NCBI GenBank assembly: GCA_038237865.1
Contig: JBBRYG010000005.1
Coordinates: forward strand, 113,384-177,383
DNA: 64,000 nt
Direction of reading: 5' to 3'
Source: Gaiellales bacterium
GTDB lineage: Bacteria > Actinomycetota > Thermoleophilia > Gaiellales > Gaiellaceae
Shown: positions 32,108 to 53,988 of the stretch, one piece after another
How positions within the stretch are numbered: the first letter of the stretch is position 1
How the letters are laid out: each line of letters begins with the position of its first letter
Program-made: the position numbers and the translations under genes
The notes under the pieces: generated by a model
Told to the model about the DNA's origin: nothing
The model's database searches: none
What the model saw: only the letters and a program-made list of their open reading frames with translations

Positions 32108-32428
32108 ATGCTCGCAGCCGAGCTTCTCCGTGAAGTACGCCGGCGCCACGGTTTGACGCAGCGACAGCTCGCCGCGCGCGCCCGCACGAGCCAGGCTGCG
32201 ATCTCCCGGATCGAGCGCGGGCTCGTCTCCCCCACGGTCGACACGCTCGCGACGTTGCTCGACCTGATGGGCGAGCAGCTCGTCGTCACCGGCGAGCAGA
32301 TCGACTACGGGCACGATCGGACGCTCTTCGCCGAGACGCGGGCGCGCACGGTCGACCAGCGGATCGCGCATGGTGTGGCGTTCTCGAATTTCGCGCGGGA
32401 GCTCCGTGGCGCAGCCGCCCGACGCTGA
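32108..32428 (+). CDS. XRE-family HTH protein (putative antitoxin/regulator)
   Basis: 'GLTQRQLAARARTSQAAISRIERG' is a canonical HTH_XRE motif. Confidence 0.8.
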   Translation: MLAAELLREVRRRHGLTQRQLAARARTSQAAISRIERGLVSPTVDTLATLLDLMGEQLVVTGEQIDYGHDRTLFAETRARTVDQRIAHGVAFSNFARELRGAAARR

Positions 32429-32920: not shown

Positions 32921-33106
32921 ATGGAGACCTCTGGGGGAGACGAGCAGTTGCGCGCGGCCGCACGGCAGATGGAGGAGCTGCTCCGCGAGCGGCTCGAGCT
33001 GACCGACCCGATGCACCCGGACAACCCGGAGTACGCGGGAAGCCCGCGCGGCATGCTGTGGTGGCAGGCCGCGTCCTGGATCGTCAATCAGGTCGAGGAG
33101 GAGTGA
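32921..33106 (+). CDS. small hypothetical protein
   Basis: 61 aa from an ATG 3 nt after the NTase stop, acidic and helical. Its 3' end overlaps the convergent helicase gene by 19 nt. Confidence 0.35.
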   Translation: METSGGDEQLRAAARQMEELLRERLELTDPMHPDNPEYAGSPRGMLWWQAASWIVNQVEEE

Positions 33107-36100
33107 GCCGCTACTGACACTGCCTCCTCAACGAACCGACACAAAGCATTGACCATCCGCATCTGCTCGATCGTGCGGCAGCGGATCTCAAGCAGCTTCG
33201 GGCTCGCGAACAGCACGGCCAGCGACTGCGCGCGCGAGATCGCCACGTTCAGCCGGTTGCGTGAGAACAGGAACTCCACGTTCCGCGGTAGGTCCTCCCC
33301 GCTCGAGGTTGCCATCGAGAAGAAGACGACCGGCGCCTCCTGGCCCTGGAACTTGTCCACCGTGCCGATCCGGGCGCGTCGGCCGAGCCGCTTGCGCAGG
33401 CACCTGACCTGCGCGTTGTACGGCGTTACGACGAGCACGTCCTCGTAGCCGATCCGCCGCTCGAGGCCGTCGCAGTCGGTGAACGTGCCGCCGATCAGCT
33501 GCTCGAGCTCCGCTGCGATCCGGTCTGCCTCCTCGATCGACGAGGCGCGGTTCGCCTCGTGCTCGACCGCGAGCCAGCGCAGCCCCGTCCCCACGAGGCC
33601 CGGCGTGTCGATCCGTTGCAGCTCGCATGCGGGCACCGCGTGGAGCCTTCCCTCGTAGGAGGTCTCCGAGATGAAGCGGCAGACCTCGGGGTGCATCCGC
33701 CAGGTGCGGGAGAGGAAGAGCCCGCGCTCGGGCGGGACGGTGTCCTCGTCGCCGAGTAGGTGCACGAGCACCGAGGCCGCCGCCCCTTCGGGATGGATGC
33801 CCTGCGAGACCTGTCCGAGCTGCTGCGGGTCACCGAGCAGGACGACGTTCCGCGCGCACGTCCCGACGGCGAGCGCGTCGGCGAGCGAGACCTGGCCCGC
33901 CTCGTCAACGAAGAGCGTGTCCACGACGTCCTCCATGTCCTCGCGCGCGAACAACCAGGCTGTCCCGGCGAGCAGAAGAACGTCGTCCTCGGGCGCCGAA
34001 AAGTGCGCCTGATTCGCAGAGGTCGTGACAAACGCGCTCTCGTAGGAGTCACCCTTCTTCAGCCCGCGGAACGAGAAGCTCTCCTCCCGGGCGGCGCGCT
34101 CGACCTCGGCGACCAGGTTGTGGATCGCCTTGTGACTCGTCGCGGTCACTCCGACCCGCCGGCCGAGCTGCATCAGGCGGACGATCAGCCGCGCGCCCGT
34201 GTATGTCTTCCCGGCTCCGGGCGGGCCCTGGATCACGAGGTGGCGCCCGCCGAGCGCGGTCACGAGCTCCTTCGCCGCCTCGAGGTCGTCCTGCACGAGC
34301 GGCGACGTGAACGGCTCGCGGGCAAGAATCGACTTGCTCGCGAGGTAGGTCTCGGCGCCGGCGAGCACCGAGCGCGCCAGCCTTCGCAGCGCCGCCTGCT
34401 GCTCCGTCGTCTTGAACGGCCCGCCGGGAATGAGCGCCGCCGGCAAGGGCGCGTCCTCGAGCTTCGGCCCGCGCCGGAGCATGAGCGTCCCGGCCTCCTC
34501 GTCGAGCGCATCGATGTTGCCCGCCGGGCCACCTGTCGCCGGGTCGAAGACCGCGTTTCCCGGGGAGAGATGATGCTGCTGCGCCGGAAACTTGAACGGC
34601 CAAACGAGCGATTGGCCTGCGCCGATTGGCGGCCCGTCCTGCTCGAGCCCTCCGATCGCGTCGGAGTCGCGCTCCTCGAGCTCCTCGCTCGTCCGCCCGA
34701 TCCGGTTGAAGAACGCCCACCAGACCGGCTTCCCCTCGCGCCGGTGGTAGAGCAGCAGCTGCGCCAGCAGCCACCGCGGCCGGTCGGCGTCGGCGACCTC
34801 GTACGAATCCTCGGGCAGCCCCGCAAGGAGCGCCGCGCGGAGCTCCTCGGTCTCCTCCACCCCCTCCGGCGGGTCGCGCGGCTCCTTCGGCTCCGGCTGC
34901 GTTGCCTCACTGGGTCGCAGCGGCAGCAGCCAGTCGCGGAGCTGCAGGGTCGAGACGCAGTCCTCCTCGTTGTAAGCGGCGATGTCGTCGAGGATCCGAG
35001 GGTCGTGCCGCTCGAGCCAGTCCTCGTAGAGCACGATCGAGTCGTCGCCAGCGCGCAGGTCGGCGTGGCGCTCGAAGTAGAAGGTCTCGACCTGCTTCAG
35101 CCCGTAGCGCTCGTGTGAGAGGCGAAGCCCCTGCGAGACGACCTTGTACAGATCGACGAAGACCTCGGCGCGGAGCAGCTCGTCGAGCTCCTCCTCGCGC
35201 GTCCCGTACTCGCAGGTCAGCCGCTTCAGCGCGGTCACCTCGTACGACGCGTAGTGGTAGACGTGCAGCGCGGGATCGGCGGCACGGCCCTCCCGGATCA
35301 GGTCGATCACGCCCTCGACCGCGCGCCGCTCCTGCGCGCGGTCGTGCGCCCAGAACGGGCGGAACGCGCCGGCGCTGTCGACGATCCCACAGAGGTACTC
35401 GAGCCCGCGGCCGGGCTCCCAGAACGGGTCGCCCTCGATGTCGAAGAAGAGATCGCCGTCGCTCGGCGGCGGCAGCAGCTCGAACCCGCGCGCCGGCTCG
35501 GACGGGAGCACCTTCCAGGCGTGCCCGTTCGCCCGCGCCGCGACCTGCATCGCCGCCTGGTCGCGCAGTGTCTCGAACGTGCGCGGCGCCATCGTCTGCG
35601 GGCGCGCAGCGTCAGGCGCCTGCGCGAACTGCGCGACGGTCGCGATCCCCTCGCGCTTGAGCCGGAGGATCTGGTCGCGCCGCATCCGCGCGACGAGGCT
35701 GAGGTGATCGTCCGCGCGCCAGCGGCTCTCGCAGCGCTGCTGGAAGTCGCAGCGGTCGCAGAAGGAGACCGGCAGGGGGTAGACGTCGATCCCGGCCTCG
35801 ACCGCGCTGACGAACCGCTCGCGCACGCGGTGGTAGTAGGCGAGGAAGTCGGCGACGCGGAGGCTCTCGCGCTCGTGCGTGCCGAGCACGACGTGCATCC
35901 GCTCGGGCATGGAGCCCTGGATCCGCCCGACCTGCTCGGAGTAGAAGCAGAGCTGAAGCACGTAGGCGGGCTTCGAGTGGCGCGCGAGCTTCGTGTCGAC
36001 GACCTCGTAGCGCCCGCCCGGCTGGCGCTCGACGAAGTCGGCGAACCCGCGCCAGTCGCCGTCGACGAAGCAGGCCTGGTAGACGACGTCCGCGCCGGCG

Positions 36101-36375
36101 AGCATCGCCTCCTCGGTCGCGCGGGCGGCCTCGTCGAGGTCCCAGTCGTTCGGGATCGTGGTGACGTCGCGGCCGTCGGCGAGCAGTTGGGCGAGGTACG
36201 CGGCTTCGTGTTCCTCGCCCTTGCGTTTGACGAGATCGGCCTGCGGGTTCTCGTCGGTCGGCCTCGCCAGCTCGTGCCGCGCCACCGCAAGCTCGAGCTG
36301 GGTCAGGTGCTCGCACTCGAGGAACGCGTTCAGGTCCGAGGGCGAGAAGAGGATGGATCCGTTGCGCTCCTGCAC
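33088..36375 (-). CDS. RecB/Cas4-like nuclease fused to SF1 (DNA2/Upf1-like) helicase, Nhi-like architecture
   Basis: 1095 aa. The N-terminal PD-(D/E)xK nuclease is 'VDTKLARHSKPAYVLQLCFY', with Cys cluster 'C..CDFQQRC'. Helicase motifs are Walker A 'IQGPPGAGKTY', 'LFVDEAGQV', 'VVTPYNAQV' and 'TVDKFQGQEAPVV'. Confidence 0.9.
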   Translation of the reverse strand: MQERNGSILFSPSDLNAFLECEHLTQLELAVARHELARPTDENPQADLVKRKGEEHEAAYLAQLLADGRDVTTIPNDWDLDEAARATEEAMLAGADVVYQACFVDGDWRGFADFVERQPGGRYEVVDTKLARHSKPAYVLQLCFYSEQVGRIQGSMPERMHVVLGTHERESLRVADFLAYYHRVRERFVSAVEAGIDVYPLPVSFCDRCDFQQRCESRWRADDHLSLVARMRRDQILRLKREGIATVAQFAQAPDAARPQTMAPRTFETLRDQAAMQVAARANGHAWKVLPSEPARGFELLPPPSDGDLFFDIEGDPFWEPGRGLEYLCGIVDSAGAFRPFWAHDRAQERRAVEGVIDLIREGRAADPALHVYHYASYEVTALKRLTCEYGTREEELDELLRAEVFVDLYKVVSQGLRLSHERYGLKQVETFYFERHADLRAGDDSIVLYEDWLERHDPRILDDIAAYNEEDCVSTLQLRDWLLPLRPSEATQPEPKEPRDPPEGVEETEELRAALLAGLPEDSYEVADADRPRWLLAQLLLYHRREGKPVWWAFFNRIGRTSEELEERDSDAIGGLEQDGPPIGAGQSLVWPFKFPAQQHHLSPGNAVFDPATGGPAGNIDALDEEAGTLMLRRGPKLEDAPLPAALIPGGPFKTTEQQAALRRLARSVLAGAETYLASKSILAREPFTSPLVQDDLEAAKELVTALGGRHLVIQGPPGAGKTYTGARLIVRLMQLGRRVGVTATSHKAIHNLVAEVERAAREESFSFRGLKKGDSYESAFVTTSANQAHFSAPEDDVLLLAGTAWLFAREDMEDVVDTLFVDEAGQVSLADALAVGTCARNVVLLGDPQQLGQVSQGIHPEGAAASVLVHLLGDEDTVPPERGLFLSRTWRMHPEVCRFISETSYEGRLHAVPACELQRIDTPGLVGTGLRWLAVEHEANRASSIEEADRIAAELEQLIGGTFTDCDGLERRIGYEDVLVVTPYNAQVRCLRKRLGRRARIGTVDKFQGQEAPVVFFSMATSSGEDLPRNVEFLFSRNRLNVAISRAQSLAVLFASPKLLEIRCRTIEQMRMVNALCRFVEEAVSVAAHSSST

Positions 36376-36872: not shown

Positions 36873-38078
36873 GTGGCCCGAAAAAGATCCCAACCTGCCG
36901 CAGCGCGGCAACTGATCTGTGATCGGTGCGGGATTTTGAATCCCACCGGTGCGCCCGAATGTTCTGCGTGCGGCAGCGAGCGCTTCGCGCCCCAATGGGT
37001 CTTGCACCAGCGACGCATCAACCGCCAGTTCGCCGTTCAGGTAACGGAACCAAACCGAGCGTTCGACAACAGCGGCACTGCACGTCTCACGCTCAGCAAA
37101 TGGTGGCCGGGCGGGCGCGCGACCTTTCACATTCCATCGGCGGACCAGTGGGAACAGATCAAAGGGATCGTCGATCGCGATTTGGCGCAGTACCTTCACT
37201 GGCAGACGCAGCAGGCTGTTCAGCAGACGATCGCCCAAGGTCAAAAGGACGCCCGAAAGGCAACCGCGGGCCTTCAGGCCACGGCGAAAGCCAACCCCAC
37301 GCTCATCACGGAAATCTTGCGCGGGATTAAGTTCGACAAGATCACGGAAGACGACGTCCCGCAGATCGGACGGGCAATTGGCGACATCGCGGGCGTTCTG
37401 ATCGATGCCGACGACAGCATGCGGCGGGCGATCCAGCGAATCGTTAAACAGTTACCTGCGCAAGGTTCCGAAGCCGTTTCGGCGCTTTCTGACTTGATGG
37501 AGAGCGTCACGCTTGCGCAGATCAATGCCGTGACGAATGAAGTGCGGCGCCGCGTCAATTTGCTCAAGGTCTTCAAGGAGCGGGTCAACGACGAGCGTAC
37601 GTACGAGATCACCGGCGATGGTTCGATCCACCGGCTGCTGGAGAGCGCGATGTGGATCGTCAATGAGCGCTACTGGCTCATGCACAGCAACGCGACTTTA
37701 CGAACCGTCGTCGGGAAGGAGCTCGCGAAGAGACACGACGATTTCAAGAAGAAGCGACCCGACTTCGTCTGCGGGTCAGTAGATCGTCGGCTAATCGTCA
37801 TCGAGATCAAGCGACCCTCGCGCGTGCTCCAGGTCGAAGATCTCGACCAGCTGGAGGAATACATTGTCACCGCGCGCGAGTACCTCGACGAGCCTCGAGC
37901 TCCGTTCGAGGCAATTCTCGTTGGAAAAAGGGCAACCGACGACCTCCGGAAGCGGCTCGACGTGCGCGGAAGCCGCGCCTTCCAGGTTAAGACGTACGCA
38001 AGCCTCATCGACGACACCGAGCATCGGTACGAGAGCTATCTCAAGGCGCTCGAAGAGACGGACGAAGACGCCGCCTGA
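36873..38078 (+). CDS. Zn-ribbon + DUF4263-type PD-(D/E)xK nuclease (Shedu SduA-like)
   Basis: 401 aa. The N-terminus has 'CDRCG...CSACG'. The C-terminus has 'RPDFVCGSVDRRLIVIEIKRP', with D then E-x-K 14 residues later. The local sequence is visibly more A/T-rich. Confidence 0.7.
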   Translation: MARKRSQPAAARQLICDRCGILNPTGAPECSACGSERFAPQWVLHQRRINRQFAVQVTEPNRAFDNSGTARLTLSKWWPGGRATFHIPSADQWEQIKGIVDRDLAQYLHWQTQQAVQQTIAQGQKDARKATAGLQATAKANPTLITEILRGIKFDKITEDDVPQIGRAIGDIAGVLIDADDSMRRAIQRIVKQLPAQGSEAVSALSDLMESVTLAQINAVTNEVRRRVNLLKVFKERVNDERTYEITGDGSIHRLLESAMWIVNERYWLMHSNATLRTVVGKELAKRHDDFKKKRPDFVCGSVDRRLIVIEIKRPSRVLQVEDLDQLEEYIVTAREYLDEPRAPFEAILVGKRATDDLRKRLDVRGSRAFQVKTYASLIDDTEHRYESYLKALEETDEDAA

Positions 38079-38097: not shown

Positions 38098-38586
38098 TCA
38101 CCTAGATCCCCCTTCTCCAGTCGGGAGTACCTCGACGAGCTCTGCGACGACGCGCACTTCGTCCGCATCGGCAACCGTGATGTCGATCGGTTCGAACCCG
38201 GCTGCATCGGTATCCGGTAGTAGCCGGACAGCATCGGGTGCGCTCCGTTCGTACAGCTTCACCGTGTAGCTCCCTCCGGTTTCCGGATCATCGATGTGCC
38301 GGCTCTCGACGAGGACTACCCGCCCGGTACGAGAACCCTCCACCGGCGTTCGCCAGACACAGAACGCCCCGTTTTGGATCCGCCGGTTCATCGATTCCCC
38401 CACCACTTGCCCGACGAACAGGCCGGGCGCGGGAGAGACTCGGCCATTCGGCAAGACCCACGCCTCCGCCTCGACCGCCTGACCGTCTCCAAACCCGCCG
38501 GCGGCGGCCGCGAGCGAGTACAGCGGAATCGCGTTCTCGTATGGCCTCACCTCGGCATCGGCTATGCGGGTAAAGGGCAATACGAC
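38098..38586 (-). other. LexA/UmuD-type S24 peptidase domain fused to HsdR
   Basis: '[12 protein letters not shown]' is the cleavage-site region, '[18 protein letters not shown]' holds the Ser, and 'GRVVLVE...YTVKLYE' holds the Lys. The tail '[17 protein letters not shown]' parallels LexA 'VELLPENSEFKPIVV'. Confidence 0.7.
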
Positions 38587-41500
38587 AGCCTCTTCTACCT
38601 CCGCCCACTCGAGGCCGAGCAGCTCGGCCTGCTCGAGCACCGTGATCGTGGCCTGCTCCTGGAGATCGGGCGGATAGCCGTGCTTGCGCAGGATCCGCCG
38701 CACCATCCGGCGGAGGTTCGCACGCACGCTGTCCTTCACCGTCCAGTCGATCGTCGCGTTCCGCTTCACCGTCTCGACGAGCTCGCGGGCCATGAAGAGC
38801 AGCTCCTGATCGCCAAGTAGGTCAACGGCGCTCTGGTTCGCTGCAAGCGCGTCGTAGAACGCGAGCTCGTCGTCGTTGAGCCCGAGCTCCTCGCCGCGCC
38901 GGTCTGCCTCGCGCAGCTCCTTCGCGAGCGCGATCAGCTCCTCGATTACCTGCGCCGCCTCGATCGCCTTCGCCTGGTAGCGCCGCACCGCAGCCGCGAG
39001 CAGCTCCGCGAACGACCGCGCCTGGACGACGTTCTTTCTCGAGCGCACCTTGATCTCGTCGTTCAGCAGCTTCTGCAGGAGCTCGACGGCAAGATTTCGC
39101 TGGGGCAGCTCCCGCACCTCGGCGAGGAACTCGTCCGAGAGCAGCGAGATGTCCGGCTTCTGCAGACCCGCAGCGGAGAAGACGTCTATCACCTCGCCCG
39201 GCGCGATCGCTCCGGCGACGATCTGCCGGATCGCGTGGTCGAGATCCTCCTCCGGCCGCGATTGGCCCGCCTCCGTCTTCACGAGCGCCGCTTTCACCGC
39301 CTGGAAGAACGCGACCTCGTCGCGGATCGCGAGGGCCTCGTCCCGCGGCACCGACAGCGCGAACGCCTTCGAGAGCTCGATCACTGCCCGCACGAACCGC
39401 TCACGCCCGTCCTCCTGCGCGAGCACGTGCTCCTGCGCGCTCGCGAGCAGCGCGAGCAGACCGCCGGGAGTCAAGGCCCGCGAGTAGTCGAAGCCGTGGA
39501 AGAGCGCGCGGCAGATCTCCGCCTTCCCGAGCATCAGCGCGACCGCCTCGCTCTGATCGAGGGCGCCCGCGCCGCGACCGCCGCTTGCCGTGTAGATCGA
39601 CAGCGCTTTCCGGAGATCGTCCGCGATGCCTAGGTAGTCGACGACGAGGCCGCCCGGCTTGTCGCGGAAGACGCGGTTCACGCGCGCGATCGCCTGCATC
39701 AGCCCATGCCCACGCATCGGCTTGTCGACGTACATCGTGTGCAGGCTCGGCGCGTCGAAGCCTGTCAGCCACATGTCGCGCACGAGCACGACCCGGAAGG
39801 GATCGTCGGGATCCTTGAACCGCCGCGCCAGCTCCTCGCGGCCGCGCTTGCTGCGAATGTGCCGCTGCCACTCCGGCGGGTCGGACGCCGAGCCGGTCAT
39901 GACGACGTTCACGTCCCAGTCGGGCCGCAGCGTGACGATCGCCTCGTAGAGGTCGACACAGATCCGGCGGCTCATGCAGACGACCATCGCCTTCCCGTCC
40001 ATCGTCTCGAGGCGGCGCTCGAAGTGCTCGACGAGATCCTCCGCGACGAGCTCCAGCCGCTTCTCGGTGCCGACGACCGCCTCGAGCTGCGCCCACTTCG
40101 ACTTCAGCTTCTCGCGCCGCGCCTCCTCCTCGCCCTCGGTCACCTCCTCGAACGCCTCGTCCAGCTTCGGCGTCTCCTCGGGCTTGAGGTCGAGCTTCGC
40201 CAGCCGGCTCTCGTAGTAGATCGGCACGGTCGCGCCGTCCTCGACCGCCTGCTGGATGTCGTACACGTCGATGTAGTCGCCGAAGACGTTGCGCGTGTCG
40301 CGGTCCTCGAGCTCGACCGGCGTGCCGGTGAAGGCGACGTAAGTCGCGTTCGGCAGCGCGTCGCGCAGGTGCCGCGCGAAGCCGTCGACGAAGTCGTATT
40401 GGCTGCGGTGCGCCTCGTCCGCGATCACGACGACATTGCGCCGGTCGGTCAGCAGCGGGAAGCGGTCGCCCTTCTCCTCCGGGACGAACTTCTGGATCGT
40501 GGTGAAGACCACGCCGCCGGACGCCACGCTGAGGAGCTCGCGCATGTGCGCGCGGTCGCGCGCCTGCGTTGGCGCCTGCCGGAGCAGGTCGGCGCTGTGG
40601 CCGAAGACTCCGTAGAGCTGGTCGTCGAGGTCGTTTCGGTCGGTGAGGATGACAAGGGTGGGATTACCGAGCGCCGGCTCGAGTACGAGCTTGCCGGCGT
40701 AGAAGGTCATCGTCAGGCTCTTGCCGGAGCCCTGCGTGTGCCAGACGACACCGGCGCGCCCGTCGCCGGAGGGGTCGGCGGCGCGTACCGTCGTCTCGAC
40801 TGCCTTCAAGGTCGCATGGAACTGGTGGTAGCCCGCGACCTTCTTGACCACGTTCGCGCCGTCGTCCTCGAAGACGATGAAATGCCGGACGAGCTCGAGC
40901 AGCCGCTCCTTCGCGAAGACGCCGCGGGCAAGCACCTCGAGCAGGTTCGATCCCGGCGGCGCCAACGCCTCGCCGTCGATCGTGCGCCACGGCAGGAACC
41001 ACTCTTTCGAACCGGTCAGCGTCCCGAGCCGCGCATCCACGCCGTCCGAGACGACGAGCAAGGCGTTCGGCGCAAGCAGCGACGGGATCTCGAGCTTGTA
41101 GGTCTCGAGCTGGTTGTAGGCACTCCAGACGTCTGCGTGCTCGTCGGCCGGGTTCTTCAGCTCGACGACGGCGAGCGGGATCCCGTTGACGTAGAGGACG
41201 ACATCGGCGCGGCGGTGCGCCTGGCCTTCCTGGACGGTGAGCTGGTTGAGCGCGAGCCAGTTGTTCGCGGCGAGGTCTTCGAAGTCGAGCAGGCGGACGC
41301 GCTCGCCGCGGACGCCGCCGCCCGCCGCGGGCACCTCGACCTCGATCCCGTCCACGAGCAGCCGGTGCAGACGCCGGTTCTCGAGCACGAGCGCCGGTGA
41401 CTCGCGCTGGAGGAGCTTCCGCTCGGCCGCGTCGAGCGCGCTCCCCGGCGCACCCGGGTTCAACCGTGCGAGCGCGGCACGCAGGCGCCCGCGGAGCAGG

Positions 41501-41646
41501 ACGTCGCCGTAGCTCTCCCGCTCGACCGCCGGCTCGCCGGGCGCGAGATCGGGCCCGTGCATGACCTCCCAGCCGAGCTCGCCGAGCCACTCGAGCAGCG
41601 CGAGCTCGGCGACGTTCTCGTCGTAACGGGGGACGGTGGTCGGCAT
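38098..41646 (-). CDS. hsdR: type I restriction endonuclease subunit R with C-terminal S24 (LexA-like) domain
   Basis: 1182 aa from the ATG at 41646. The nuclease is '[20 protein letters not shown]'. Helicase motifs are '[11 protein letters not shown]', '[10 protein letters not shown]', 'FTGTP' and 'QAIARVNR'. A DUF3387-like region follows, then the S24 module. Confidence 0.93.
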
Positions 41647-41648
41647 CG

Positions 41649-42635
41649 TTAGGCGACTCGGGCCAGGACTGCCTCCACATTCTCGATGAATGTCGGCCAA
41701 TAGTCAGCACCCGTTCCGTCGTCTCGGACGGACACCCCCGCATGTCGTACATCGGCTGCGATGCGATGTATGAGCTGACGGGCCTCACTCGCGCGCTGGT
41801 AGTCGGAGAGCTCATCTAGATCGGGACGTGCAAACCAGCGCCAGATCTCCGCCAACGCGTGGAGCAGTTGCGGCCAGTCGCGGTGTGTGGGGATCGCGTG
41901 GGGATCGAGTTCGAGGAAGGAGGCCCAGCGCGCGCTGTCGACCCCGTATCGAGCCTCGTTGCCGACCCAGAAGCGCTCGACATCGCCGGCGGCGCTCAGC
42001 TCCGCGAGGGCGTCGCTGACGTTCCGTTTCGTCGACGCTGCGGCGGCGGCGATCGCAAGAGCGGTCGCGTTCGACACCCCCGTCGTGAGTAGGAAGCGGA
42101 CGATCTCCGCGCGCGCGCTCACGCCGAAATGCCGCCGCAGCCGGAACGCGAGGTTGATCGGGGCCCGGAGGTCGGGCGGGGTCGACTTTCCGCTCGGCGT
42201 CGTCGCAGGCTTCACGAAGCCGCGGGCGAGGAAGATCGGGTCCTCACGGCCGGGCAGGCCCGGCCGGCGAAAGAGCGGAACGGGCTCGCGGCCCGGCTCC
42301 ACCGTGCCCGGCAGGCGTCTGAGCGCCGACCCGTTCGCCGCGGCCCACTCGACCGCGGCGTCGATGACCGGACGTCCGGGATCGTGGCGCGAGAGGTGCG
42401 ACAGCCGGCGCGAGCTGACGACGTCGCCGTTCGCTCGCAGCCAGTCGAGCACCTCGTCGAAGAGGCGCGGGTCGGCGCGGGCGACCTCGAGCGAGAACAA
42501 GAGCAGCGCCTCCGGGTCCTGCGCCCACGGGTCCCTGCGCGCGGTCGCGATGAAGACACCCATCTGCGACCATTGGTCGCCGGCGAACCGCAACAGCGTG
42601 CCCGTGACGCGCTCTCTAAGCTCCGAGACCCGCAT
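41649..42635 (-). CDS. hypothetical protein with central wHTH-like segment
   Basis: 328 aa from the ATG at 42635. '[48 protein letters not shown]' looks like a winged helix. It ends 2 nt before the hsdR start. Confidence 0.6.
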
Positions 42636-43200
42636 CCTCGACTCCGAGGTAGCGCAGCGCAGGGACCAACATCTCGTTGAATCCCTCGGACGGATCCTGC
42701 GTCCGTGCCCAGGCCGCAGCCGCGAGCAGCTCATCGCGCGTCGGCGCAAGCGCGCGAAGATCGTCCTCGTGGCGGCCGCTTCCCTGGTCGGTGAGCGCGT
42801 AGAGCTTGAAGTGGATCTGGTCGTAGCGGCTCGCGAGGTGGATCGACAGGGACGGCCCGAACTCCCTGCGCTCGAGCCGGTCGACGAAACCGTCGGGGAG
42901 CCCCCACTCGAGCAGGTCGGACGGGCCGGCGTTGAGCCAGCCGTCGCTGACCCCGAAGTCCGCGGCGACGGCGTCCTTGGCCTCGACGAGGGCAGGCGGC
43001 AGCGGCTTGGCGTCGCGCAGCACCCCGCCCTCCATTAAGGCCACGACGTCGACGTCGCGCGTCGGCCGCTCGACAAGTCCGAGAATCGTGAGCGCGGAGC
43101 CACCGATGACGACGAGCTCGACCGGCGTCCGCGCGAGCTCGAGCCGCTGCCCCAAGGCGCGCAGCAACTCGGCGATCGCCTCTGGCGCGAGCGGATACAT
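42616..43200 (-). CDS. minimal nucleotidyltransferase (DUF6036-like)
   Basis: 194 aa. 'LVVIGGSALTILGLVERPTRDVDVVAL' fits GS...DxD, and 'HFKLYALTDQGSGRHEDDLRAL' follows. It overlaps the downstream gene by 20 nt. Confidence 0.72.
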   Translation of the reverse strand: MYPLAPEAIAELLRALGQRLELARTPVELVVIGGSALTILGLVERPTRDVDVVALMEGGVLRDAKPLPPALVEAKDAVAADFGVSDGWLNAGPSDLLEWGLPDGFVDRLERREFGPSLSIHLASRYDQIHFKLYALTDQGSGRHEDDLRALAPTRDELLAAAAWARTQDPSEGFNEMLVPALRYLGVEDAGLGA

Positions 43201-43242
43201 GCGAGAAGTATAACTTCTCGATTCGAGAACTACAGCCTCTTG

Positions 43243-44360
<1,118 letters not shown>

Positions 44361-44364
<4 letters not shown>

Positions 44365-45923
44365 GGACGGATGCGGAGCAGCTCTGAGCGGATCGTGCGC
44401 TCAAGTTCTACGGACTCAGCGAACTGTTCCTCGAGCTGCGCCGCCAACCTCGCGATCTTTTCCTCGAACGGCTCGCCGTCGTCCTCCTCCGCCGCGGCGC
44501 CGACGTAGCGACCCGGCGTCAGCACGTGGTCGTGCCCACGGATCTCCTCGAACGTCGCGCTCTTGCAGAAGCCGCGCTCGTCCGCGTACTCGCCGACGCC
44601 CGGCTCGCCGCGCCAGGCGTGGTAGGCGCCAACGATCCGCGCCAGCTCGTCGTTGGTCAACTCGCGGTGGGTGCGGCTGGCCATCACGCCGAGCTTGCGC
44701 GCGTCGACGAACAGCGTCTCGCCCGCCCGCGCCCGCAGCGACTTCGCGCCTCGCGTCGGCGCGCCCGACTTGTCGCGGGCGAGGAACCAGAGACAAACGG
44801 GGATCGGCGAGCCGTAGAAGAGCTGCCCCGGCAGCGCGACGATGCAGTCGACGAGGTCGGCCTCGACGATCGCCTTCCGGATCTCGCCTTCGCCGGACTG
44901 TTGGGAACTCATCGAGATGTTCGCGAGCACGAAGCCCGCGATCCCCAGCGGCGCGAGGTGGTGGATCATGTGCTGCACCCAGGCGAAGTTCGCGTTTCCC
45001 TGCGGCGGCACGCCGAACTGCCAGCGCACGTCGTCGGCGTCGCGTGCCCAGTCGCTCATGTTGAAGGGCGGGTTCGCGAGCACGAAGTCCGCCTTCAGGT
45101 CGGGGTGCAGGTCGCGGCGGAACGTATCGGCATGCTGCGGGCCGAGGTTCGCCTCGATCCCGCGCAGGGCGAGGTTCATCTTCGCGAGCTTCCAGGTGGT
45201 CGGGTTCGACTCCTGGCCGAAGATCGAGATGTCGTCGAGCCGGCCGCCGTGCGCGGCGATGAACTCCTCCGACTGCACGAACATGCCGCTCGAGCCACAG
45301 CAGGGGTCGTAGACGCGGCCCTGGTAGGGCTCGATCATCTCGACGAGCAGCTTCACGACCGAGCGGGGCGTGTAGAACTCGCCGCCGCGCTTGCCCTCCT
45401 TCGAGGCGAACTGGCCGAGGAAGTACTCGTAGACGCGGCCGAGCACGTCTTTCGCGCCGTCGCCTGCGCCGAAGCCGATGTTCCCGATCAGGTCGATCAA
45501 CTCGCCGAGCCGCTGCTTGTCGAGCGCCGGCCGCGCATACTCCTTGGGGAGCACGCCGGCGAGCGAACGGTTCTCGCGCTCGACCGCGTCCATCGCGCCG
45601 TCGACGAGCGTCCCGATCTCGGGCTGCTTCGCCTTGTCCTGCAGGAAGCCCCAGCGAGCCTCGGCGGGAACCCAGAAAACACCCTTGGCGAGGTACTCGT
45701 CGGGATCCTCGGGATCCGCACCCTGTGCAACCTGGGCGGCGATCTGCGCGTGCCGCGCCTCGAATGCGTCGGAGACGTACTTGAGGAAGATCAGGCCGAG
45801 GACGACGTGCTTGTACTCGGCTGCGTCCATGTGCCCGCGCAGCTTGTCCGCCGCCGCCCAGAGCGTCGCCTCGAAACCGAGCGTCGCGCCATTTGCCGAT
45901 TGCTGCTTGCGCGGTCTACCCAT
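44361..45923 (-). CDS. hsdM: type I restriction-modification N6-adenine DNA methyltransferase subunit
   Basis: 520 aa from the ATG at 45923. The N-terminus is '[32 protein letters not shown]'. SAM motif '[12 protein letters not shown]'-type is '[12 protein letters not shown]', and the catalytic motif is 'LANPPFN'. Confidence 0.95.
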
Positions 45924-47748
45924 CCGCGGTCGGCACAGTAGCGGGCGCCGCTTCCCACCCCGATGCTCGGCGCCAGTCCTCGAGTGAGACGTCGGGGCCT
46001 CGCCAAATCTGAACCACTCGTGCCGCCAGCTCGGCGGAGCGCTCATCGATCGCCTGCTCGGTCCAGCCGGCCGCGTAGCTCCCGACGAGACGTGAATTCA
46101 GGAGAAGGACGCTGTGCGCATTGAGGGCGTCCTTCTTTGATGTCCAGGCAGCGTTCGACATCGCCGGATTGAGCTTCGAGGTTACGAGGGTCAAGTTGCC
46201 GAGTTGGTGGACTCGCGACTCCCGCTGCTGAATCGCCTCATCCGTCGACTCGGACAAAGACCAGTGCTGCTGCCACTTCTGAGGGAGGACGTGCTCGATC
46301 GAGAGATCAGCAGGAATCTGGACAGCCTCAGCCTTCTCGGTACGGAGGTCATGTTCCAGTGCTTTCAACAGCATGACCAGCCGCTTCCGCACGAGGGTTC
46401 GGTAGAGAGGCGCATCGTGGAGGACAGACAGAAGCTCTGCGTCGTCAGGCCATCGAGCTGAGTCCGCATCGCTGGACGTGAGGAAGCCATGCACCACCTC
46501 ATCGGCGGCGTCGGTGCTCCCGGTCAGGAGCTTCACGAGATCGACGAAGAGCCGGTTGTACCCCTGCGCCGTCAGCCGACAGATCATCCGCCGTACGAGC
46601 CAACTCTCGAGCATCGAAAGCGCAGCGTTTCGGCGCGCCTCGGGAAGATCGTCCTGGAAGAGGATGAGCGCAATCGGATACGCGGTCGTTGTATCGAGAG
46701 CTTCGAGTCGCTCGAAGAAACGCTGCGGGATCGTTCCGAGCGGTTGCTGGAAGAAACGCTCGTATCGGTCGCGATCGGCAGTGAATTCCCCGATCGTCTG
46801 CGTCACCGACTGGGTCTCTTCCTGGAGCAGCCTCTTGAACGTCCCGTAAAGATGCTGCGCCGGCACCTCCTCGCCCAACTTCATTGTCAGCCAGTGCATC
46901 AAGAAGAGCTCGGCGCGCGGACGGCGGAGGCGACCCTGCACAATTTCCTCTCGCCAATAGTCCCGGTCGAAGGTCGCCCACCGCTCCGCGTAGAGGCTGT
47001 CGAGATTCGCCGAAGCCTCGGTGCGCTCGGCATGCTGAAACACCAGGTTCTTGACGAGGTCGATCGCGAGCAGTGGGGTGCCGCGGGCATTCAGACTTTC
47101 GAAGATCACCTGCGCGTCGTCCTCGGAATCGAGGTCGATCACCACGAGCTTGAACAGGTTTCGGGCTACAGCAGTGAGCCCGTCGAATGCTCGTTCGACA
47201 TCGTCCTGCTCGACCGCCCACTGGCGAATGACGCCAAGGAAGAAGGCGTATGCCTCATGGATCCGGTTCCCCTCATCCTCAGCGGCGGCTTCGCCTGCCA
47301 TGACGTCGACGAAGGCATGGCGATTCGCGTTCGTAGGCCAGACCTTGAACCGCGCATCGCGAGTCTTCGCCAGGTCGGGATTGTTTCGAGTGAGGCTCTC
47401 GAGGAGCCGAGCCTGAACCTCGCACCCCGTCTCTTGCGCCACGCGTGAGGCAGCAGCGATGAACAACTGGAGCGTCGTAAGCCGCTGCTGCCCGTCGATG
47501 ACAAGTCGGACGTCGATGTCCCCGAGCTGAGTGGGCATCTGTTCGAGTACCACCGCTCCCAGGAAGTGCGGAGAAGGCTTGCCAGACGTGGCAGGGTCAC
47601 TCGACCGGTCTAGCACCCAACAAACGTCGTTCCACAACGGCTCCCAGTGCTCGGCTTTTTTCCACACGTATGGGCGCTGATAGAGGGGAACGACGTAGCG
47701 CACGTCCTTGCCGAAGATCGTTGCGAGGTCGTTCGTGTCCGCCTTCAT
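45916..47748 (-). CDS. GmrSD-family (DUF262 + DUF1524) modification-dependent type IV restriction enzyme
   Basis: 610 aa. DUF262 shows 'YQRPYVW' and '[13 protein letters not shown]'. The C-terminal His-Me finger shows 'IEHVLPQ...LGNLTLV...N'. It overlaps hsdM by 8 nt and the ImmA gene by 4 nt. Confidence 0.9.
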
Positions 47749-48268
47749 GCTGGGGCTTCCGCCACGAGCCCGAGGTTGTAGACGGGCCAGGCATACGCCT
47801 CATCGCTGACGCCGACGCGATTGTTGCCGGATGCCGCTCGGACCTCGGGTTCAGGCATCAGCAGCTTTGCTGCGAACACGTTCGCCTCGCGCTCCAGCGC
47901 ACGATCGGCAGCCGAGCTCACGTCCTTCGGCCGGCAGAACACCGGCGCTCGTTGCCCTTCCATGCACTGGCAGATCCAGTGGTCAAGCTCGTGGGCGATC
48001 GTGAAGCGCCGGCGGGGCTCCGGCTCGGTCGAGTTCACGTAGATCTCACGCCGGCCGGGAGGAGCATGCCCGACACGTCCAGCTCCGCCTCCTCGATGCT
48101 CAGGCCGAGGAGATCCTCCGCGATCCGCTCTACGGGCACGGGCAACTCGGGGTCGTCGAACAGCTCGTGGTAACGCCGCCGCAAGACCCCTGCCCTCGGA
48201 TCGGTGACCGGTCCGGCCACGTCCGCATTGTCATTGGTTAGCGGGAAAAAGGGAAGGCACGCGATCAA
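47745..48268 (-). pseudogene. ImmA/IrrE-family (M78) metallopeptidase gene, split by a 1-nt frameshift
   Basis: ORF 48035..48268 ends '...PVERIAEDLLGLSIEEAELDVSGMLLPAG'. The next frame continues '(REIY)VNSTEPEPRRRFTIAHELDHW', which contains HExxH. The break is near 48035-48045. Confidence 0.65.
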
Positions 48269-48359
48269 CTTGGAAGTGGCGCTCGTCGCCGCGGAGTCTT
48301 ACATTCACGGACGCGGCTCGATAGTGGGTCAGTTTGGAAGGGAGTCCGAACGCGAGTTG

Positions 48360-48887
48360 TCAGGCTGCCTGTCGAGCGAGCTTCTTCGTGAAGCGGTCCG
48401 ACGCGTCCCTGAGAACTTGGTCGAGCAGCCTGTTGAGCAACCATAAAAGGGACCAGGTCCTGATGAACGCGAGCGCGAGAATGCTGGCCGCGATTGCTTC
48501 AAGCCACTTCTTTGGGTCTTTCGCTGCATCCGCCAAGACCATCGCGGTCATAACGATAGTCGCGAAGGCGAATGCCCAGATCGCGCCCATGAAGATGTTC
48601 CGCGTGTACGCAAAACCGGGCGTACCACGAAGGAAGTCCATGCCTCTGCCGGATCCGAGCCCCGTGAACACGGTGATCGCGGCGAGGGCGAATCCGAGAA
48701 GGACGCCACTCGTGCCTGCTAGTGACATGTAGAAATTCGAACGCGTGCCGGGGTCTATGGCGGCGAGAAGATTCGGTCGGCCGGGCGCGAAATACTCAGC
48801 GGCTCCGTAGCCAAGGCCGAAAACGGCCGCCAAGACCCAGTGGTAGCCAATGAAAGCGTCCTTGAAGCGCGGCATAGACACATTCAT
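48360..48887 (-). CDS. four-TM membrane protein
   Basis: 175 aa with four hydrophobic spans and a basic C-terminal tail. Its ATG overlaps the upstream gene stop as ATGA at 48884-48887. Confidence 0.65.
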   Translation of the reverse strand: MNVSMPRFKDAFIGYHWVLAAVFGLGYGAAEYFAPGRPNLLAAIDPGTRSNFYMSLAGTSGVLLGFALAAITVFTGLGSGRGMDFLRGTPGFAYTRNIFMGAIWAFAFATIVMTAMVLADAAKDPKKWLEAIAASILALAFIRTWSLLWLLNRLLDQVLRDASDRFTKKLARQAA

Positions 48888-49797
48888 CGCTCTTCAACCT
48901 TGAGTGTGCCGCCTTGGGCAAGGTCATCGGCCATACGCGCATGCACGGCTTGAATCGTGGAGTACGCGGCCTCCGTGTCAAGAGTTCGGTGGCGCGGGCT
49001 TTCTCGCCGAATGTCCTCGACGATGACTACACGATCGTGGAGAAGGTCGAGTTCACCGAGGTCGTCGTCGGACGTAACCCCGTATACCTGCGCGGTCTCG
49101 ACGAAGCTCGTCGGCTCCGCGCCTGAGTCGCGGAGGCCACGAAAGAATCGCTTGACGCGCTCGGTGAAGTCCGCGTCTCCGCCTCGGAGGCCCAGGTGAG
49201 GTCGACGTACTTGCCTGCCCGGAAAACGTCCGTCACTTCGAAGCCCTCGCTGAGTGCGACGCCGCGTCCCTGAAGTTCGGCCTGGCCGTGTGGTGTCACC
49301 TTTACTCGCACGCGGCGGATCTCCCGCATGGCGAGGATCGCGCTGATCACGTCGCCTCGCACAAACGGGCGGATATGGACGTCCTGGTCGCAACGCTCGT
49401 TCAGAAACGTGCCGAACGTAGTGATCCGCGGACCGTAATGGTTGTACTCGGAGCCAATCACGTTGTCATCAAACAGGAGGATATGGATCGACTCGGCCAG
49501 CCCTCGTTCCTCGGCGAGCTCGAGATCCTCGAAGGTCCCCGCCTCCTCGGTCTCGGGGAGATTGCGCCGACGGATCCGGTAAAACCGAATGCGCTGCGGG
49601 CGTTCGGGCCTATCGACAATGGCACACAAAAACTGCTCGTCCCCCTCGTCGATGTAGAAATCGGACGTGCCGTCAAGCCCGCCAATGCGGTCTACGATGT
49701 CCTGTCGGTCGAGCGAGAAGGTAGGATCGTCGTCGTTTACGGCCTTGTGGAAATAGATCTTTCTCTCGGCGAAGTTCGGGTCTCGCTGTCGGGGCAT
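48884..49797 (-). pseudogene. uncharacterised ~304-aa cytoplasmic protein gene with one frameshift
   Basis: The ATG at 49797 is preceded by AGGAGGAAGAAGG. The body lies in ORF 49027..49866 up to '...GKYVDLTWASE'. It then continues in the frame of ORF 48884..49393 as 'GGDADFTERVKRFFRGL...TLKVEER'. The shift is near 49175-49190. Confidence 0.6.
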
Positions 49798-50230
49798 CCT
49801 TCTTCCTCCTCGTCGATCCGGTCTTTCCCCTGCGGCGACTCTCACAGCCGTCGTGACAGTTGGCAAGCGTGGAGGTGGTGAAATGAAGCGCTACCTTTGT
49901 TGAGATGCTTGACCGCTCACGTAAGCGCCCAAGGACGTGAACGAGCGCTAGCAAGACGCGAGATCCGCGACGTGACGCCCGAGATTTCGGCCTGACCCAC
50001 TACCCGCGGCTCTTTTTGACTGAGTCCTTACCGGGTGATGTCCACCTCGCTGCTCCTCGCCCGCAACCGGATGGATCACCGAGATGCGACTCCAGCCATT
50101 TCTGCAGGTCTGTTCTCTATCGGGCGAGCCTTTCGAGGATCGCCTGGTTCTCGTTCATGAACCGGTCGAGCCTCTCCTGGAACGCGCGATTGGAGCGCTT
50201 CGCCTGGACGTGGACGGTGGCCTGCGGCCC

Positions 50231-51275: not shown

Positions 51276-51905
51276 CTACTTGCCCTTGCCCTTCGGCTTT
51301 CTCGGAACGATGTCGCCGTGGGTTCGGATCTTTCCGCCCTCAAGCCTGTCCGTCCACGTGCCACGACCGCCGTCGGTCGCGTGGTAGACGAACTCGTAGC
51401 GGGTGTACTTGAAGCTCTTGAAGCCTTCTCCGCTCGTGAAGTAGGCGCTCAGCCAGTCGTAGGTGCCGGAGCACTCGCCCTTGCGATCGCTGGAGAGGCA
51501 GCCGAAGTTCTTCGTCCCGAGGTCGCCGCGGGTGGGCTGCCCGGAAGGGGAGAAGCGCGCGGCGAACGTGTTCGTCGACGATCCCTTGACCGTGCCGCGG
51601 ATGCCGGCCGGAATGGTGGTCGTCCCGCCCGGGCTCGCGCCGGCGACCGTCGTAAAAGTGCCGTTGTAGGTCGAGGTCGAGCAGTAGCGGTTGGTGCCTT
51701 TCCGCCAGACCCGGACGGTGCGCACGTAGTTGTCGAAGGCCCAGTTGTTTCCCCTGGTACCCGTGTCGATGTCGTTCTGGACGCGGTAGCGGACATCGAG
51801 CACGCGTGTGCCGGCTCCGCAGCCGCCGTTCTTGGGGCCGCTCGCAGCGGTCGCGGGGCTCGCCAGGATCAAGCCTGCGAGGATCGCTGTGAATGCCGCT
51901 TTCAC
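51276..51905 (-). CDS. secreted hypothetical protein
   Basis: 209 aa from the GTG at 51905. Signal peptide 'KAAFTAILAGLILASPATAASG', several Cys residues, and a Lys-rich tail. Confidence 0.55.
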   Translation of the reverse strand: MKAAFTAILAGLILASPATAASGPKNGGCGAGTRVLDVRYRVQNDIDTGTRGNNWAFDNYVRTVRVWRKGTNRYCSTSTYNGTFTTVAGASPGGTTTIPAGIRGTVKGSSTNTFAARFSPSGQPTRGDLGTKNFGCLSSDRKGECSGTYDWLSAYFTSGEGFKSFKYTRYEFVYHATDGGRGTWTDRLEGGKIRTHGDIVPRKPKGKGK

Positions 51906-51927
51906 ACCAAAACAGACGATTTTTAAG

Positions 51928-52716
51928 TCATAAACTTGCGGTCTGCCGCCAGGAGGCGGTGATGCCGATCGGTGCGCCCGCCGCGACGCCGGGACGCTCG
52001 TAGAGCCGGACGCGAGCGGCGCGGACGAGCTCGCGGAACTCCTCGTCCGTCTCGGCCTCCCGGACCTCAGCCGGTCCAAGGCGGACAGACTCCTCTCCGG
52101 CACGGAGCTCGACCCAGGCCTCCCCGCCCTCCGAGGCGAGCCTGCGGAGGGCACCGCTCGCCGCCACCTGGTCGAGCTCCGAGACGACGCGCTCGAGCTC
52201 GTCCACGAGCCGGCTTTCGCTGACGACCCGAAAGGCGGCCACGAGCGAGCGGTAGTACCAGAGCTGGTCGGCCTCCGGGTTGAACCGGCCCCAGAGCTCC
52301 TCGCCGAGCTCGCGGTAGTCGAAGAGCACCGAGCGGGCGTTGTGCACCTTGTCGGCCAGGGAGACGCGGACGATCGACGGGTGTGCTTCGGCCAGGCGGG
52401 CGATGTAGCGCTCCTTGCGAGGGCGCCAAGCGGGCTTCGGCTGGATGTCCGCGTCCGAGCAGCCGACGACGATTTCCGCGACGCGCTCGCCGTAGCGCTC
52501 GACAAGCTCCTCCGCACGGATTCCGCAGTCCTCGATCGCGTCGTGCAGGAGTCCCGCGATCGCCTCGTCCTCGTCGCCGCCGTCCTCCAGCACGAGCGCG
52601 GCGACGCCCAGGAGGTGCGCGACGTAGGGGATGCCCGTGTCGCCCTTGCGCTCCTGTGAGGCATGGGTGCGGGTCGCGTAGACCAGCGCATCCTCGAAAC
52701 GGTTCCCGAGCGGCAC
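51928..52716 (-). CDS. HD-domain hydrolase (SpoT/Mesh1-like small alarmone hydrolase type)
   Basis: 262 aa from the GTG at 52716. 'PYVAHLLGVAALVLEDGGDEDEAIAGLLHDAIED' is the H...HD signature of the (p)ppGpp-hydrolase fold. Confidence 0.78.
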   Translation of the reverse strand: MPLGNRFEDALVYATRTHASQERKGDTGIPYVAHLLGVAALVLEDGGDEDEAIAGLLHDAIEDCGIRAEELVERYGERVAEIVVGCSDADIQPKPAWRPRKERYIARLAEAHPSIVRVSLADKVHNARSVLFDYRELGEELWGRFNPEADQLWYYRSLVAAFRVVSESRLVDELERVVSELDQVAASGALRRLASEGGEAWVELRAGEESVRLGPAEVREAETDEEFRELVRAARVRLYERPGVAAGAPIGITASWRQTASL

Positions 52717-52763
52717 GCGCGCATCATCCCGTGTCCGACGCGACGGCGACACTTGCAGGGCGA

Positions 52764-53852: not shown

Positions 53853-53988
53853 GTCGCCGGTCGCGACCTGATCGGAGTCGGCTCGAAATCGGTGCAGAGC
53901 CGCACGAGTTTCTCCGGTAGCGTCGGTCTCGAGGGTGGTGGGATAGTGCCTCCACCCAAAGGGCGGGGGGTGCGCGCGCGTCTACGTC

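Follow-up and report, generated by a model that had tools for sequence, protein, structure and literature searches.

A LexA/S24-type module at the C terminus of HsdR in a mosaic defence array of a Gaiellales bacterium

A minus-strand array of defence genes (49797 to 38098) in a 64,000-nucleotide stretch of a Gaiellales bacterium genome (contig JBBRYG010000005.1, positions 113,384 to 177,383; hereafter the window, with a G+C content of ~70%) includes a type I restriction–modification (R-M) system whose motor subunit, HsdR, ends in a LexA/S24-type module with an intact Ser–Lys dyad and a predicted self-cleavage site. The module recurs at the C termini of other defence proteins in many phyla. We tentatively read the locus as a mosaic island with a backbone made up of this type I system, carrying a self-cleaving HsdR–S24, and a nuclease–helicase, in which DNA damage would trigger cleavage and then degradation of HsdR; we rate this as a serious possibility that falls a little short of an even call. 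The HsdR–S24 fusion and the wider use of the module on defence motors represent a novel variation on systems already known. The other parts of the array show instructive but ordinary defence-island mosaicism and gene decay.

HsdR is 1182 residues long. Its Pfam domains run from HSDR_N through SWI2_SNF2/ResIII and T1R_D3-like to T1RH-like_C, followed by a C-terminal S24-like stretch, with GSGKS at residue 306 and DEAH at residue 410. The PADLOC model REase_I (PDLC03040) is matched at positions 6–1022 of 1029 by residues 9–1011, and the last 166 residues of HsdR extend beyond this type I model. With a nuclease, a superfamily 2 motor and a C-terminal assembly domain in HsdR, and with HsdM (bearing NPPF) and HsdS encoded next to it, the system has the make-up of a type I enzyme.

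Fold and motifs identify the additional residues as an S24 module. An AlphaFold model built on 26 homologues (predicted local distance difference test (pLDDT) 85.7, predicted template modelling score (pTM) 0.82) returned in Foldseek 22 top matches that were all LexA, lambda cI, UmuD′ or the 186 repressor (best E 6.6e-6, probability 1.0). The Pfam S24 family (PF00717) scores 22.5 bits on the window HsdR, just short of the cut-off of 23.3, and 26.1, 24.4 and, for the others, 20.9–22.8 bits on its relatives. The predicted scissile bond, A1049/G1050, lies in PLYSLAAAA/GGFG (the slash marks the cut; codons 38502–38497), followed by Ser1085 of a GESM motif (38394–38392) and Lys1130 of a TVK motif (38259–38257). 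The spacing from the glycine to the serine is 35 residues; in Escherichia coli LexA it is 34. Across the 80 loci classified below, the serine of GxSM and the lysine of T(V/I/L)K occur in all 80 and the dyad is invariant in the alignment, the PLxxLxxAA/G motif is found in 77 whatever the fusion partner, and the residues before the scissile bond always read ...(A/V/I/F)AA. That the module cuts itself is argued by this near-invariance of dyad and scissile site: in fold, Ser–Lys dyad and Ala–Gly site the HsdR C terminus matches what is expected of S24 proteins, and self-cleavage is predicted. The S24 domain that an earlier note, made from the sequence of this stretch without database searches, had placed on HsdR is thus present with its catalytic residues intact.

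The module shares with LexA, lambda cI and UmuD the fold, the dyad, an Ala–Gly bond about 35 residues before the serine and an ...AA end at the cut (...VAA in LexA). Where they carry a DNA-binding domain on the N-terminal side, it has a restriction motor of 1016 residues (in other loci a helicase, a type III Res or a DruE-like protein), and its sequence is too diverged for sequence matches in the Protein Data Bank (PDB). Two other accounts of the arrangement were considered and rejected: an assembly artefact caused by a missed stop codon, because the fusion recurs in 26 of the 80 loci and in several phyla, and a standalone S24 gene beside hsdR (protein P0011), because its contig is error-prone, with hsdR broken into many open reading frames (ORFs).

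A census of the module with one genome per species gave at least 571 loci, the best 80 of which were classified by the upstream in-frame protein. HsdR fusions make up 26 of these 80 (18 of the window type and 8 of a second HsdR subfamily) and Schlafen-group-3/DUF2075 helicases, related to AbiO/Nhi/PDC-S41, another 40; there are also three type III Res-like proteins, two DruE-like (MZB) proteins and nine cases that are short, some of them XRE repressors, or stand at a contig end. HsdR–S24 proteins span six phyla or more (Actinomycetota, Chloroflexota, Myxococcota, Planctomycetota, Acidobacteriota and Proteobacteria). The helicase, type III and DruE-like fusions are found in loci L031–L093, for example L048 5747–8176 (Geobacter sp. 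OR-1), L081 8048–10495 (Variovorax robiniae), L050 6956–10519 and L070 9029–10489, and cultivable strains with an S24 fusion include Geobacter sp. OR-1, Variovorax robiniae KACC 18901 and Ideonella sp. YS5. One of the type III Res–S24 fusions is followed by a GmrSD, a metagenomic protein (P0025) carries the module on a staphylococcal-nuclease domain, and a match to the module on a Halomonas megaplasmid is unannotated.

In a rough neighbour-joining order, the modules of the HsdR subfamilies, type III enzymes and XRE repressors are interleaved, which suggests repeated domain transfer. On these sequence comparisons, the module could be a portable post-translational switch, grafted C-terminally onto at least four to five classes of defence motor in many phyla, that couples their stability or activity to a RecA/single-stranded DNA (ssDNA) signal and, for type I enzymes, provides hard-wired restriction alleviation; as a general statement we find this possible but rather doubtful. 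PADLOC has no model for the module. No paper tying S24 to HsdR, DUF2075, restriction or anti-phage defence was found in a search that left most subscription journals outside its reach, and neither S24 nor LexA comes up in an EcoSal review of 2025 on the biology of R-M systems.

In the scheme that we favour for the window, RecA–ssDNA filaments or an equivalent signal would cause the Ser1085/Lys1130 dyad to cut A1049/G1050, freeing a 133-residue S24 domain. HsdR would be left with an ...LAAAA end that could act as an ssrA/LexA-like ClpXP degron, and would be degraded, so that restriction would be off while repair and recombination create unmethylated chromosomal sites. The order of events, damage-triggered cleavage followed by degradation of HsdR, is favoured by two precedents. 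LexA-like proteins carry a ClpXP C-degron directly beside the autocleavage site, and the N-terminal fragment is destroyed after cutting (PMC5742171, citing Neher 2003); and EcoKI restriction is alleviated after DNA damage because ClpXP degrades HsdR (PMC4231737, PMC12707154). The window system resembles EcoKI in its HsdR/HsdM/HsdS architecture and motifs and in the predicted outcome, proteolytic removal of HsdR after DNA damage. By contrast, the HsdR of EcoKI has no protease domain and ClpXP recognises the translocating complex, whereas the window HsdR has a LexA-type module and a putative latent degron.

Several points weigh against this scheme. The data show the anatomy, fold, motifs and recurrence of the fusion, and the mosaicism and pseudogenes described below; that HsdR is cut, what sets this off and what then becomes of the protein are inferred. 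Self-cutting that does not need RecA is known from some LexA-like proteins (PMC7101444). The AA conserved ahead of the cut might reflect just the site preference of the protease and not a degron, and by analogy with UmuD, self-cleavage could activate the enzyme rather than inactivate it. In E. coli, ClpXP recognises translocating HsdR untagged, so that alleviation could in principle do without a further module. Helicases and type III Res proteins, the other fusion partners, may call for a different unifying logic. Finally, sequence-only PDB searches with the S24 region, both as a single sequence and as a 26-sequence profile, gave chance matches only, and with the Pfam score just below its cut-off it is the fold search and the motifs that carry the S24 assignment.

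The main rival is activation by loss of an inhibitory domain: the module would keep HsdR and other motors auto-inhibited or mis-assembled, and its removal in response to phage-induced ssDNA and activated RecA would license restriction, as in the conversion of UmuD to UmuD′. The conserved, evidently catalytic motifs serve this proposal equally, and it may be the better fit for the methylation-independent helicase partners, as the AbiO/Nhi-like helicases and DruE-like proteins lack methylation protection and an infection-gated ON switch would be useful to them. The module also adjoins the T1RH-like C-terminal domain, through which HsdR docks on the methylase. However, type I and type III enzymes already tell self apart by methylation, and they have to attack incoming DNA at a stage when no damage signal has yet arisen; in LexA, cI and IrvR, cutting destabilises the N-terminal part; and the XRE–S24 members of the same family are, by their architecture, ordinary repressors inactivated by cleavage. 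We therefore consider activation unlikely, although it deserves to be taken seriously. It is improbable that the module does not cleave at all and serves for dimerisation or for binding RecA filaments, tethering two HsdR subunits or steering the enzyme to or from recombination intermediates. The S24 domains of LexA and cI do dimerise and bind RecA filaments, and PDB entries 8gms and 8gmu are among the fold matches, yet a near-invariant Ser, Lys and Ala–Gly across phyla and partners are hard to explain without catalysis; because the catalytic residues are conserved, a purely structural role is unlikely.

How autoimmunity is kept in check is a central unsolved question in restriction and in DNA-targeting defence generally, and the only well-understood route for type I enzymes is ClpXP-dependent restriction alleviation in E. 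coli, which works through recognition of the translocating complex. If damage-triggered self-cleavage is correct, the module would solve the problem in another way, modular and open to direct test, on HsdR, type III, DruE-like and Schlafen-type helicase proteins, and would tie immunity to the SOS signal through the protein itself, where CapH/CapP, CapW and CapK/CapS work through transcription. Its sequence signature is also easy to recognise and can serve to find defence proteins gated by damage.

The array around this HsdR is, from its sequence, an assemblage of independently mobile parts and not a conserved regulon. A sister Gaiellaceae genome (L014) has in common with the window both flanks of the locus, hsdM (89% nucleotide identity) and hsdR–S24 (84%), and its downstream nuclease–helicase is 67% identical in nucleotides to window 33088–36375. 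Its locus consists of hsdM, hsdS, hsdR(S24) and the nuclease–helicase, and lacks GmrSD, ImmA, the small membrane protein, the gene that we call p304 and the pair encoding a nucleotidyltransferase (NTase) and a winged helix–turn–helix (wHTH) protein. Nucleotide homology between the two genomes begins exactly at the hsdM start codon (window 45924, L014 3388), which means that GmrSD and all that lies upstream of it in the block were exchanged right at a gene boundary. In hsdS the match to L014 is confined to the conserved spacer regions, as expected for swapped target-recognition domains. Another locus (L002) has GmrSD, hsdM, hsdS and hsdR–S24 in this order, without ImmA or NTase–wHTH. The G+C content at third codon positions (GC3) is 0.90–0.93 in hsdM, hsdR and the helicase, and 0.69–0.82 in GmrSD, ImmA, the membrane protein and p304. 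We propose that the backbone received three sets of additions: a lower-GC3 5′ block with an intact, translationally coupled GmrSD and a decaying orphan ImmA, a frameshifted DUF6731-like gene (p304) and a small membrane protein; a mobile NTase–wHTH cassette in a variable slot between hsdS and hsdR, with a promoter-like element of its own that probably also drives hsdR; and new specificity domains on hsdS.

The slot between hsdS and hsdR varies from locus to locus. It holds a DUF433 pair in L014 (6128–6953), an Abi_C protein in L018 (4106–4915) and genes of no assigned family in L016; in L017 (3397–4790), DUF3800 and further unassigned genes are accompanied by the same NTase–wHTH pair as in the window. 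This suggests that the slot is an insertion hotspot for toxin–antitoxin- or Abi-like genes.

The NTase of the window scores 30 bits with Pfam DUF6036, above the cut-off, and 21.1 bits with AbiEii, below the cut-off of 22.5. Its gene is always upstream of the wHTH gene, with an overlap of 17–20 nt, in L009, L010 and L017, and the pair also occurs far from any R-M genes (L009–L013) with the overlap kept and, in L011–L013, a truncated NTase. The 328-residue wHTH protein has more than 1150 homologues and no Pfam or PADLOC family. Its AlphaFold2 (AF2) model is confident (pLDDT 92.2, pTM 0.91) and bears out a central wHTH, with weakly significant ArsR/MarR-like matches; only the wHTH region matches PDB entries (E about 0.02–0.1), and the flanking helical domains have no solved relative. 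The 42-nt gap before the NTase gene contains the palindrome TTCTCGAATCGAGAA and a TATACT 6 nt before the NTase ATG. Among the loci examined, this conserved palindrome, with TATAYT ~6–8 nt ahead of the NTase start codon, turns up in the window, in L009 (7414) and L010 and in L017 (5269) and nowhere else, that is, in three independent NTase–wHTH cassettes, of which L009/L010 has no R-M genes nearby. It is probably the cassette's own autoregulated, leaderless-type promoter, and with hsdR starting 2 nt after the wHTH stop codon this candidate promoter may also serve hsdR.

Like AbiE and MNT-type modules, the cassette couples a small NTase to a wHTH protein in a mobile pair with a palindromic promoter region that suggests autoregulation. 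It differs from them in having the NTase first, in the DUF6036 family of that NTase, and in a 328-residue partner without an AbiEi match and with two unsolved helical domains; AbiE, a toxin–antitoxin system, has an AbiEii NTase preceded by an AbiEi wHTH antitoxin, and here the wHTH gene is downstream and the AbiEii score below its cut-off. A cassette fully independent of R-M was considered and dropped, given its embedding before hsdR–S24 in L017 and a wHTH fragment beside hsdM in L018. The island has a second small NTase-like ORF at 32370–32918 (+), with a borderline DUF2204 and a weak DUF6036 match.

At the 5′ end of the array, ImmA and p304 are pseudogenes, as full-length homologues and an independent assembly attest. 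The p304 span from 49797 to 48884 is 914 nt, which is not divisible by three, with a frameshift near 49183–49178; the first 256 codons run up to the stop at 49027, and the C-terminal third, which is conserved, has to be read in another frame. Stitched together, the 304 residues align end to end across the break with homologues of 304–310 residues, with 52% identity to the closest (P0299). What had been described as a gene of ~304 residues consists of two overlapping ORFs in different frames. The family comprises 671 representative clusters, its alignment is too diverse for a pattern scan, and PF20505 (DUF6731) is matched by 7 of 16 members. For p304 and the membrane protein, PADLOC and NCBIfam gave no match, and viral contigs and plasmids no relatives. 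The 175-residue membrane protein itself, a singleton cluster, has no significant Pfam, PADLOC or NCBIfam family, and the four transmembrane segments once assigned to it are three strong hydrophobic segments and a weaker one.

In ImmA a 1-nt frameshift falls in a CCGGCCGG run near 48056–48051, and only the 97-residue C-terminal ORF is recorded as a protein. More than 1500 homologues of 156–200 residues span the break, with 60–75% identity to the stitched sequence. Among 42 columns that do not vary in 24 homologues, the window ImmA departs from the common residue at three, one of them the change of HELGH to HELDH; the signal is weak, in that one control sequence also departs at three. An independent Logan assembly of run SRR19962011 (L001) is identical over 45792–50162 and repeats both frameshifts and the GmrSD/hsdM junction base for base.

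It could still be argued that the frameshifts do not inactivate the genes, being sequencing or consensus artefacts or minority variants, or being bypassed by split proteins or ribosomal frameshifting, so that ImmA and p304 function. Both frameshifts do sit in G/C-rich runs, and the two ImmA ORFs overlap by GTGA, which would make coupled translation of the halves possible. We think this improbable: two assemblers gave the same sequence, there is no evident slippery motif, many invariant residues fall in the N-terminal half of ImmA, the protein is also substituted at otherwise invariant positions, and DUF3800, a third gene of the island, is frameshifted as well (31362–32080 (+), split over two frames). 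This DUF3800 gene is 70% identical to that of the ImmA cassette in L005, on the opposite strand and ~16 kb from ImmA.

Intact close relatives of ImmA (L175–L177, L005–L008, L004, L097, L098, L103, L106, L178) show what the window copy has lost. There, ImmA belongs to a co-directional cassette of ARPP-1 (PF20208), sometimes DUF3800, an extracytoplasmic function (ECF)-type sigma factor, a partner of ~180 residues and ImmA. The partner, which has no Pfam family, is directly upstream of ImmA in 9 of the 11 close metagenomic relatives with upstream sequence, and the sigma factor was found in all four relatives with enough of it. The cargo that follows intact ImmA varies: bacteriophage exclusion (BREX) genes, the nuclease–helicase, a type I R-M system, a DEAD–MZB–DUF559 protein, a DNA methylase or an SMC-like ATPase. 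By its gene content the cassette looks like a sigma/partner/protease regulator of immune operons; no paper on this cassette together with BREX was found. A copy of the nuclease–helicase at 33088–36375, 50% identical in amino acids, stands right after ImmA in L005–L008, and the nuclease–helicase also follows intact ImmA directly in L095 and L178. Judged from these neighbourhoods, it may have been the original cargo of the ImmA cassette.

The earlier note had likened ImmA to CapP, and for the family this is supported: the stitched sequence matches PADLOC capP at E=4.9e-25, over the peptidase domain only (profile positions 17–129 of 242). It does not extend to this copy. The HExxH motif of the M78 peptidase is there (as HELDH) in a frame broken near 48053, and the window has no homologue of the ~180-residue partner or of the sigma factor where a CapH-like gene would be expected. 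CapP proper has additional helix–turn–helix (HTH) and GAF domains that sense ssDNA (PMC13228613), whereas the ImmA family, at 156–200 residues, consists of the peptidase domain alone, without the C-terminal HTH and the ssDNA groove of the GAF domain. As in CapH/CapP, ImmR/ImmA and DdrO/IrrE, the ancestry of the window ImmA is that of a CapP-like M78 peptidase, and its intact relatives stand ahead of defence operons, in many cases accompanied by a sigma factor; sigma factors lie beside capH/capP in 24 systems of cyclic oligonucleotide-based anti-phage signalling (CBASS) (Lau et al.). It differs from CapH/CapP in lacking GAF, in a cassette that is co-directional with its cargo and not divergent from it, and in being frameshifted and partnerless. 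Its sequence and surroundings mark the window ImmA as what is left, decayed and orphaned, of a regulator cassette of the CapP-like sigma/partner/ImmA type.

These results bear on the model of the earlier note, in which all of the array may form a single regulon tuned by DNA damage and both protease switches would work, an ImmA/CapP-like transcriptional one and the S24 domain on HsdR. The array is indeed tightly spaced and co-directional, intact ImmA relatives lie directly upstream of, and co-directional with, BREX, helicase–nuclease and type I R-M genes, and CapH/CapP are proven damage-responsive regulators of immune operons. Against this, ImmA has a frameshift, a HELDH in place of HELGH and neither partner nor sigma gene, which leaves one plausible working switch (S24) where two DNA-damage-type protease modules had been claimed; the NTase–wHTH cassette has a conserved promoter-like element inside the array; and the modules differ in GC3 and are absent at the sister locus. 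The pairing of ImmA with S24 is unique to the window among 26 other HsdR–S24 and 80 ImmA loci, and, as far as this pairing goes, uniqueness of the juxtaposition to this genome was what the note itself had named as grounds for giving up the idea. Nor would the S24 module be a switch for a regulon, as it would act post-translationally and in cis on HsdR. We give very little credence to the two-switch regulon: the tight co-directional array is real, and its reading as an ancestral, conserved unit does not hold. Scans for consensus promoters and terminators over 36–51.5 kb found sites no commoner than in shuffled sequence and are therefore uninformative on transcription units.

All eight gene junctions listed in the earlier note are correct to the base. 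The p304 and membrane-protein genes overlap by ATGA (48884–48887), and a 91-nt gap separates the latter from ImmA; ImmA and GmrSD overlap by 4 nt (47745–47748), GmrSD and hsdM by 8 nt, and hsdM and hsdS by 4 nt; a gap of 42 nt lies between hsdS and the NTase gene, the NTase and wHTH genes overlap by 20 nt, and hsdR follows after 2 nt. The number of genes, given there as ten, is nine, two of them broken (p304 and ImmA). The domain calls for GmrSD, hsdM, hsdS, the NTase and HsdR were borne out by Pfam, PADLOC and NCBIfam (Table 1). The array proteins, all from a single 197-kb NCBI contig, are singletons when clustered at 90% identity, and their nearest relatives are in metagenome-assembled genomes of Gaiellaceae/Thermoleophilia.

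Table 1. Features of the array and of the nuclease–helicase downstream of it, in window coordinates.
Feature	Position	Strand	Basis
p304, DUF6731-like, frameshifted pseudogene	48884..49797	minus	5′ ORF 49797–49027; 3′ part in other frame, stop 48884
Small membrane protein, 175 aa	48360..48887	minus	3–4 hydrophobic segments; ATGA-coupled to p304
ImmA/CapP-like M78 metallopeptidase, frameshifted	47745..48268	minus	ORFs 48268–48035 and 48038–47745
GmrSD type IV enzyme, 610 aa, intact	45916..47748	minus	Pfam; PADLOC mREase_IV/Orf5; motifs
hsdM, 520 aa	44361..45923	minus	Pfam N6_Mtase 9e-103 and HsdM_N; NPPF at 284
hsdS, 373 aa	43243..44364	minus	Pfam Methylase_S; PADLOC Specificity_I
Candidate promoter/operator in 42-nt gap	43201..43242	minus	Palindrome TTCTCGAATCGAGAA and −10-like TATACT
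DUF6036-family NTase, 194 aa	42616..43200	minus	Pfam DUF6036, 30 bits
wHTH partner of NTase, 328 aa	41649..42635	minus	AF2 model; >1150 homologues
hsdR core, residues 1–1016	38599..41646	minus	TIGR00348, 587 bits; PADLOC REase_I
S24 module of HsdR, residues 1017–1182	38098..38598	minus	Fold search and motifs
TM0106/RecB-like nuclease + RNase_H_2 + SF1 helicase, 1095 aa	33088..36375	minus	TIGR03491; PADLOC MkoA-like

GmrSD is a single polypeptide with both Pfam domains, GmrSD_N (6.8e-34, 118 bits) and GmrSD_C (1.2e-25, 90.5 bits), DGQQR at residue 85 and an HNH-like EHVLP at residue 485 in the C-terminal part. This is the DUF262+DUF1524 architecture of type IV enzymes, and dependence on modified DNA is predicted. 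With GmrSD/BrxU-type enzymes it shares that architecture, the DGQQR motif and a place adjoining another restriction system, and the enzyme itself shows nothing unusual. A copy 73% identical to it stands in front of hsdM in L002, the only one of the examined loci in which the 8-nt overlap recurs.

Two further regions adjoin the array. Upstream, at 51276–53959 (−), two ORFs of 483 and 411 residues overlap by 4 nt, with an atypical G+C content of 0.48 at first and 0.75–0.83 at second codon positions and no family matches; they probably just shadow genes that are read in a different frame or on the other strand, which leaves the upstream edge of the island undefined. Downstream, a 401-residue ORF at 36873–38078 (+) is convergent with hsdR and lies where the G+C content of the window is lowest (0.596). 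Its matches are a zinc ribbon at the N terminus and, below threshold, SduA_C/HSDR_N_2, with no PADLOC family, and at its position L014 carries a different gene of 203 residues.

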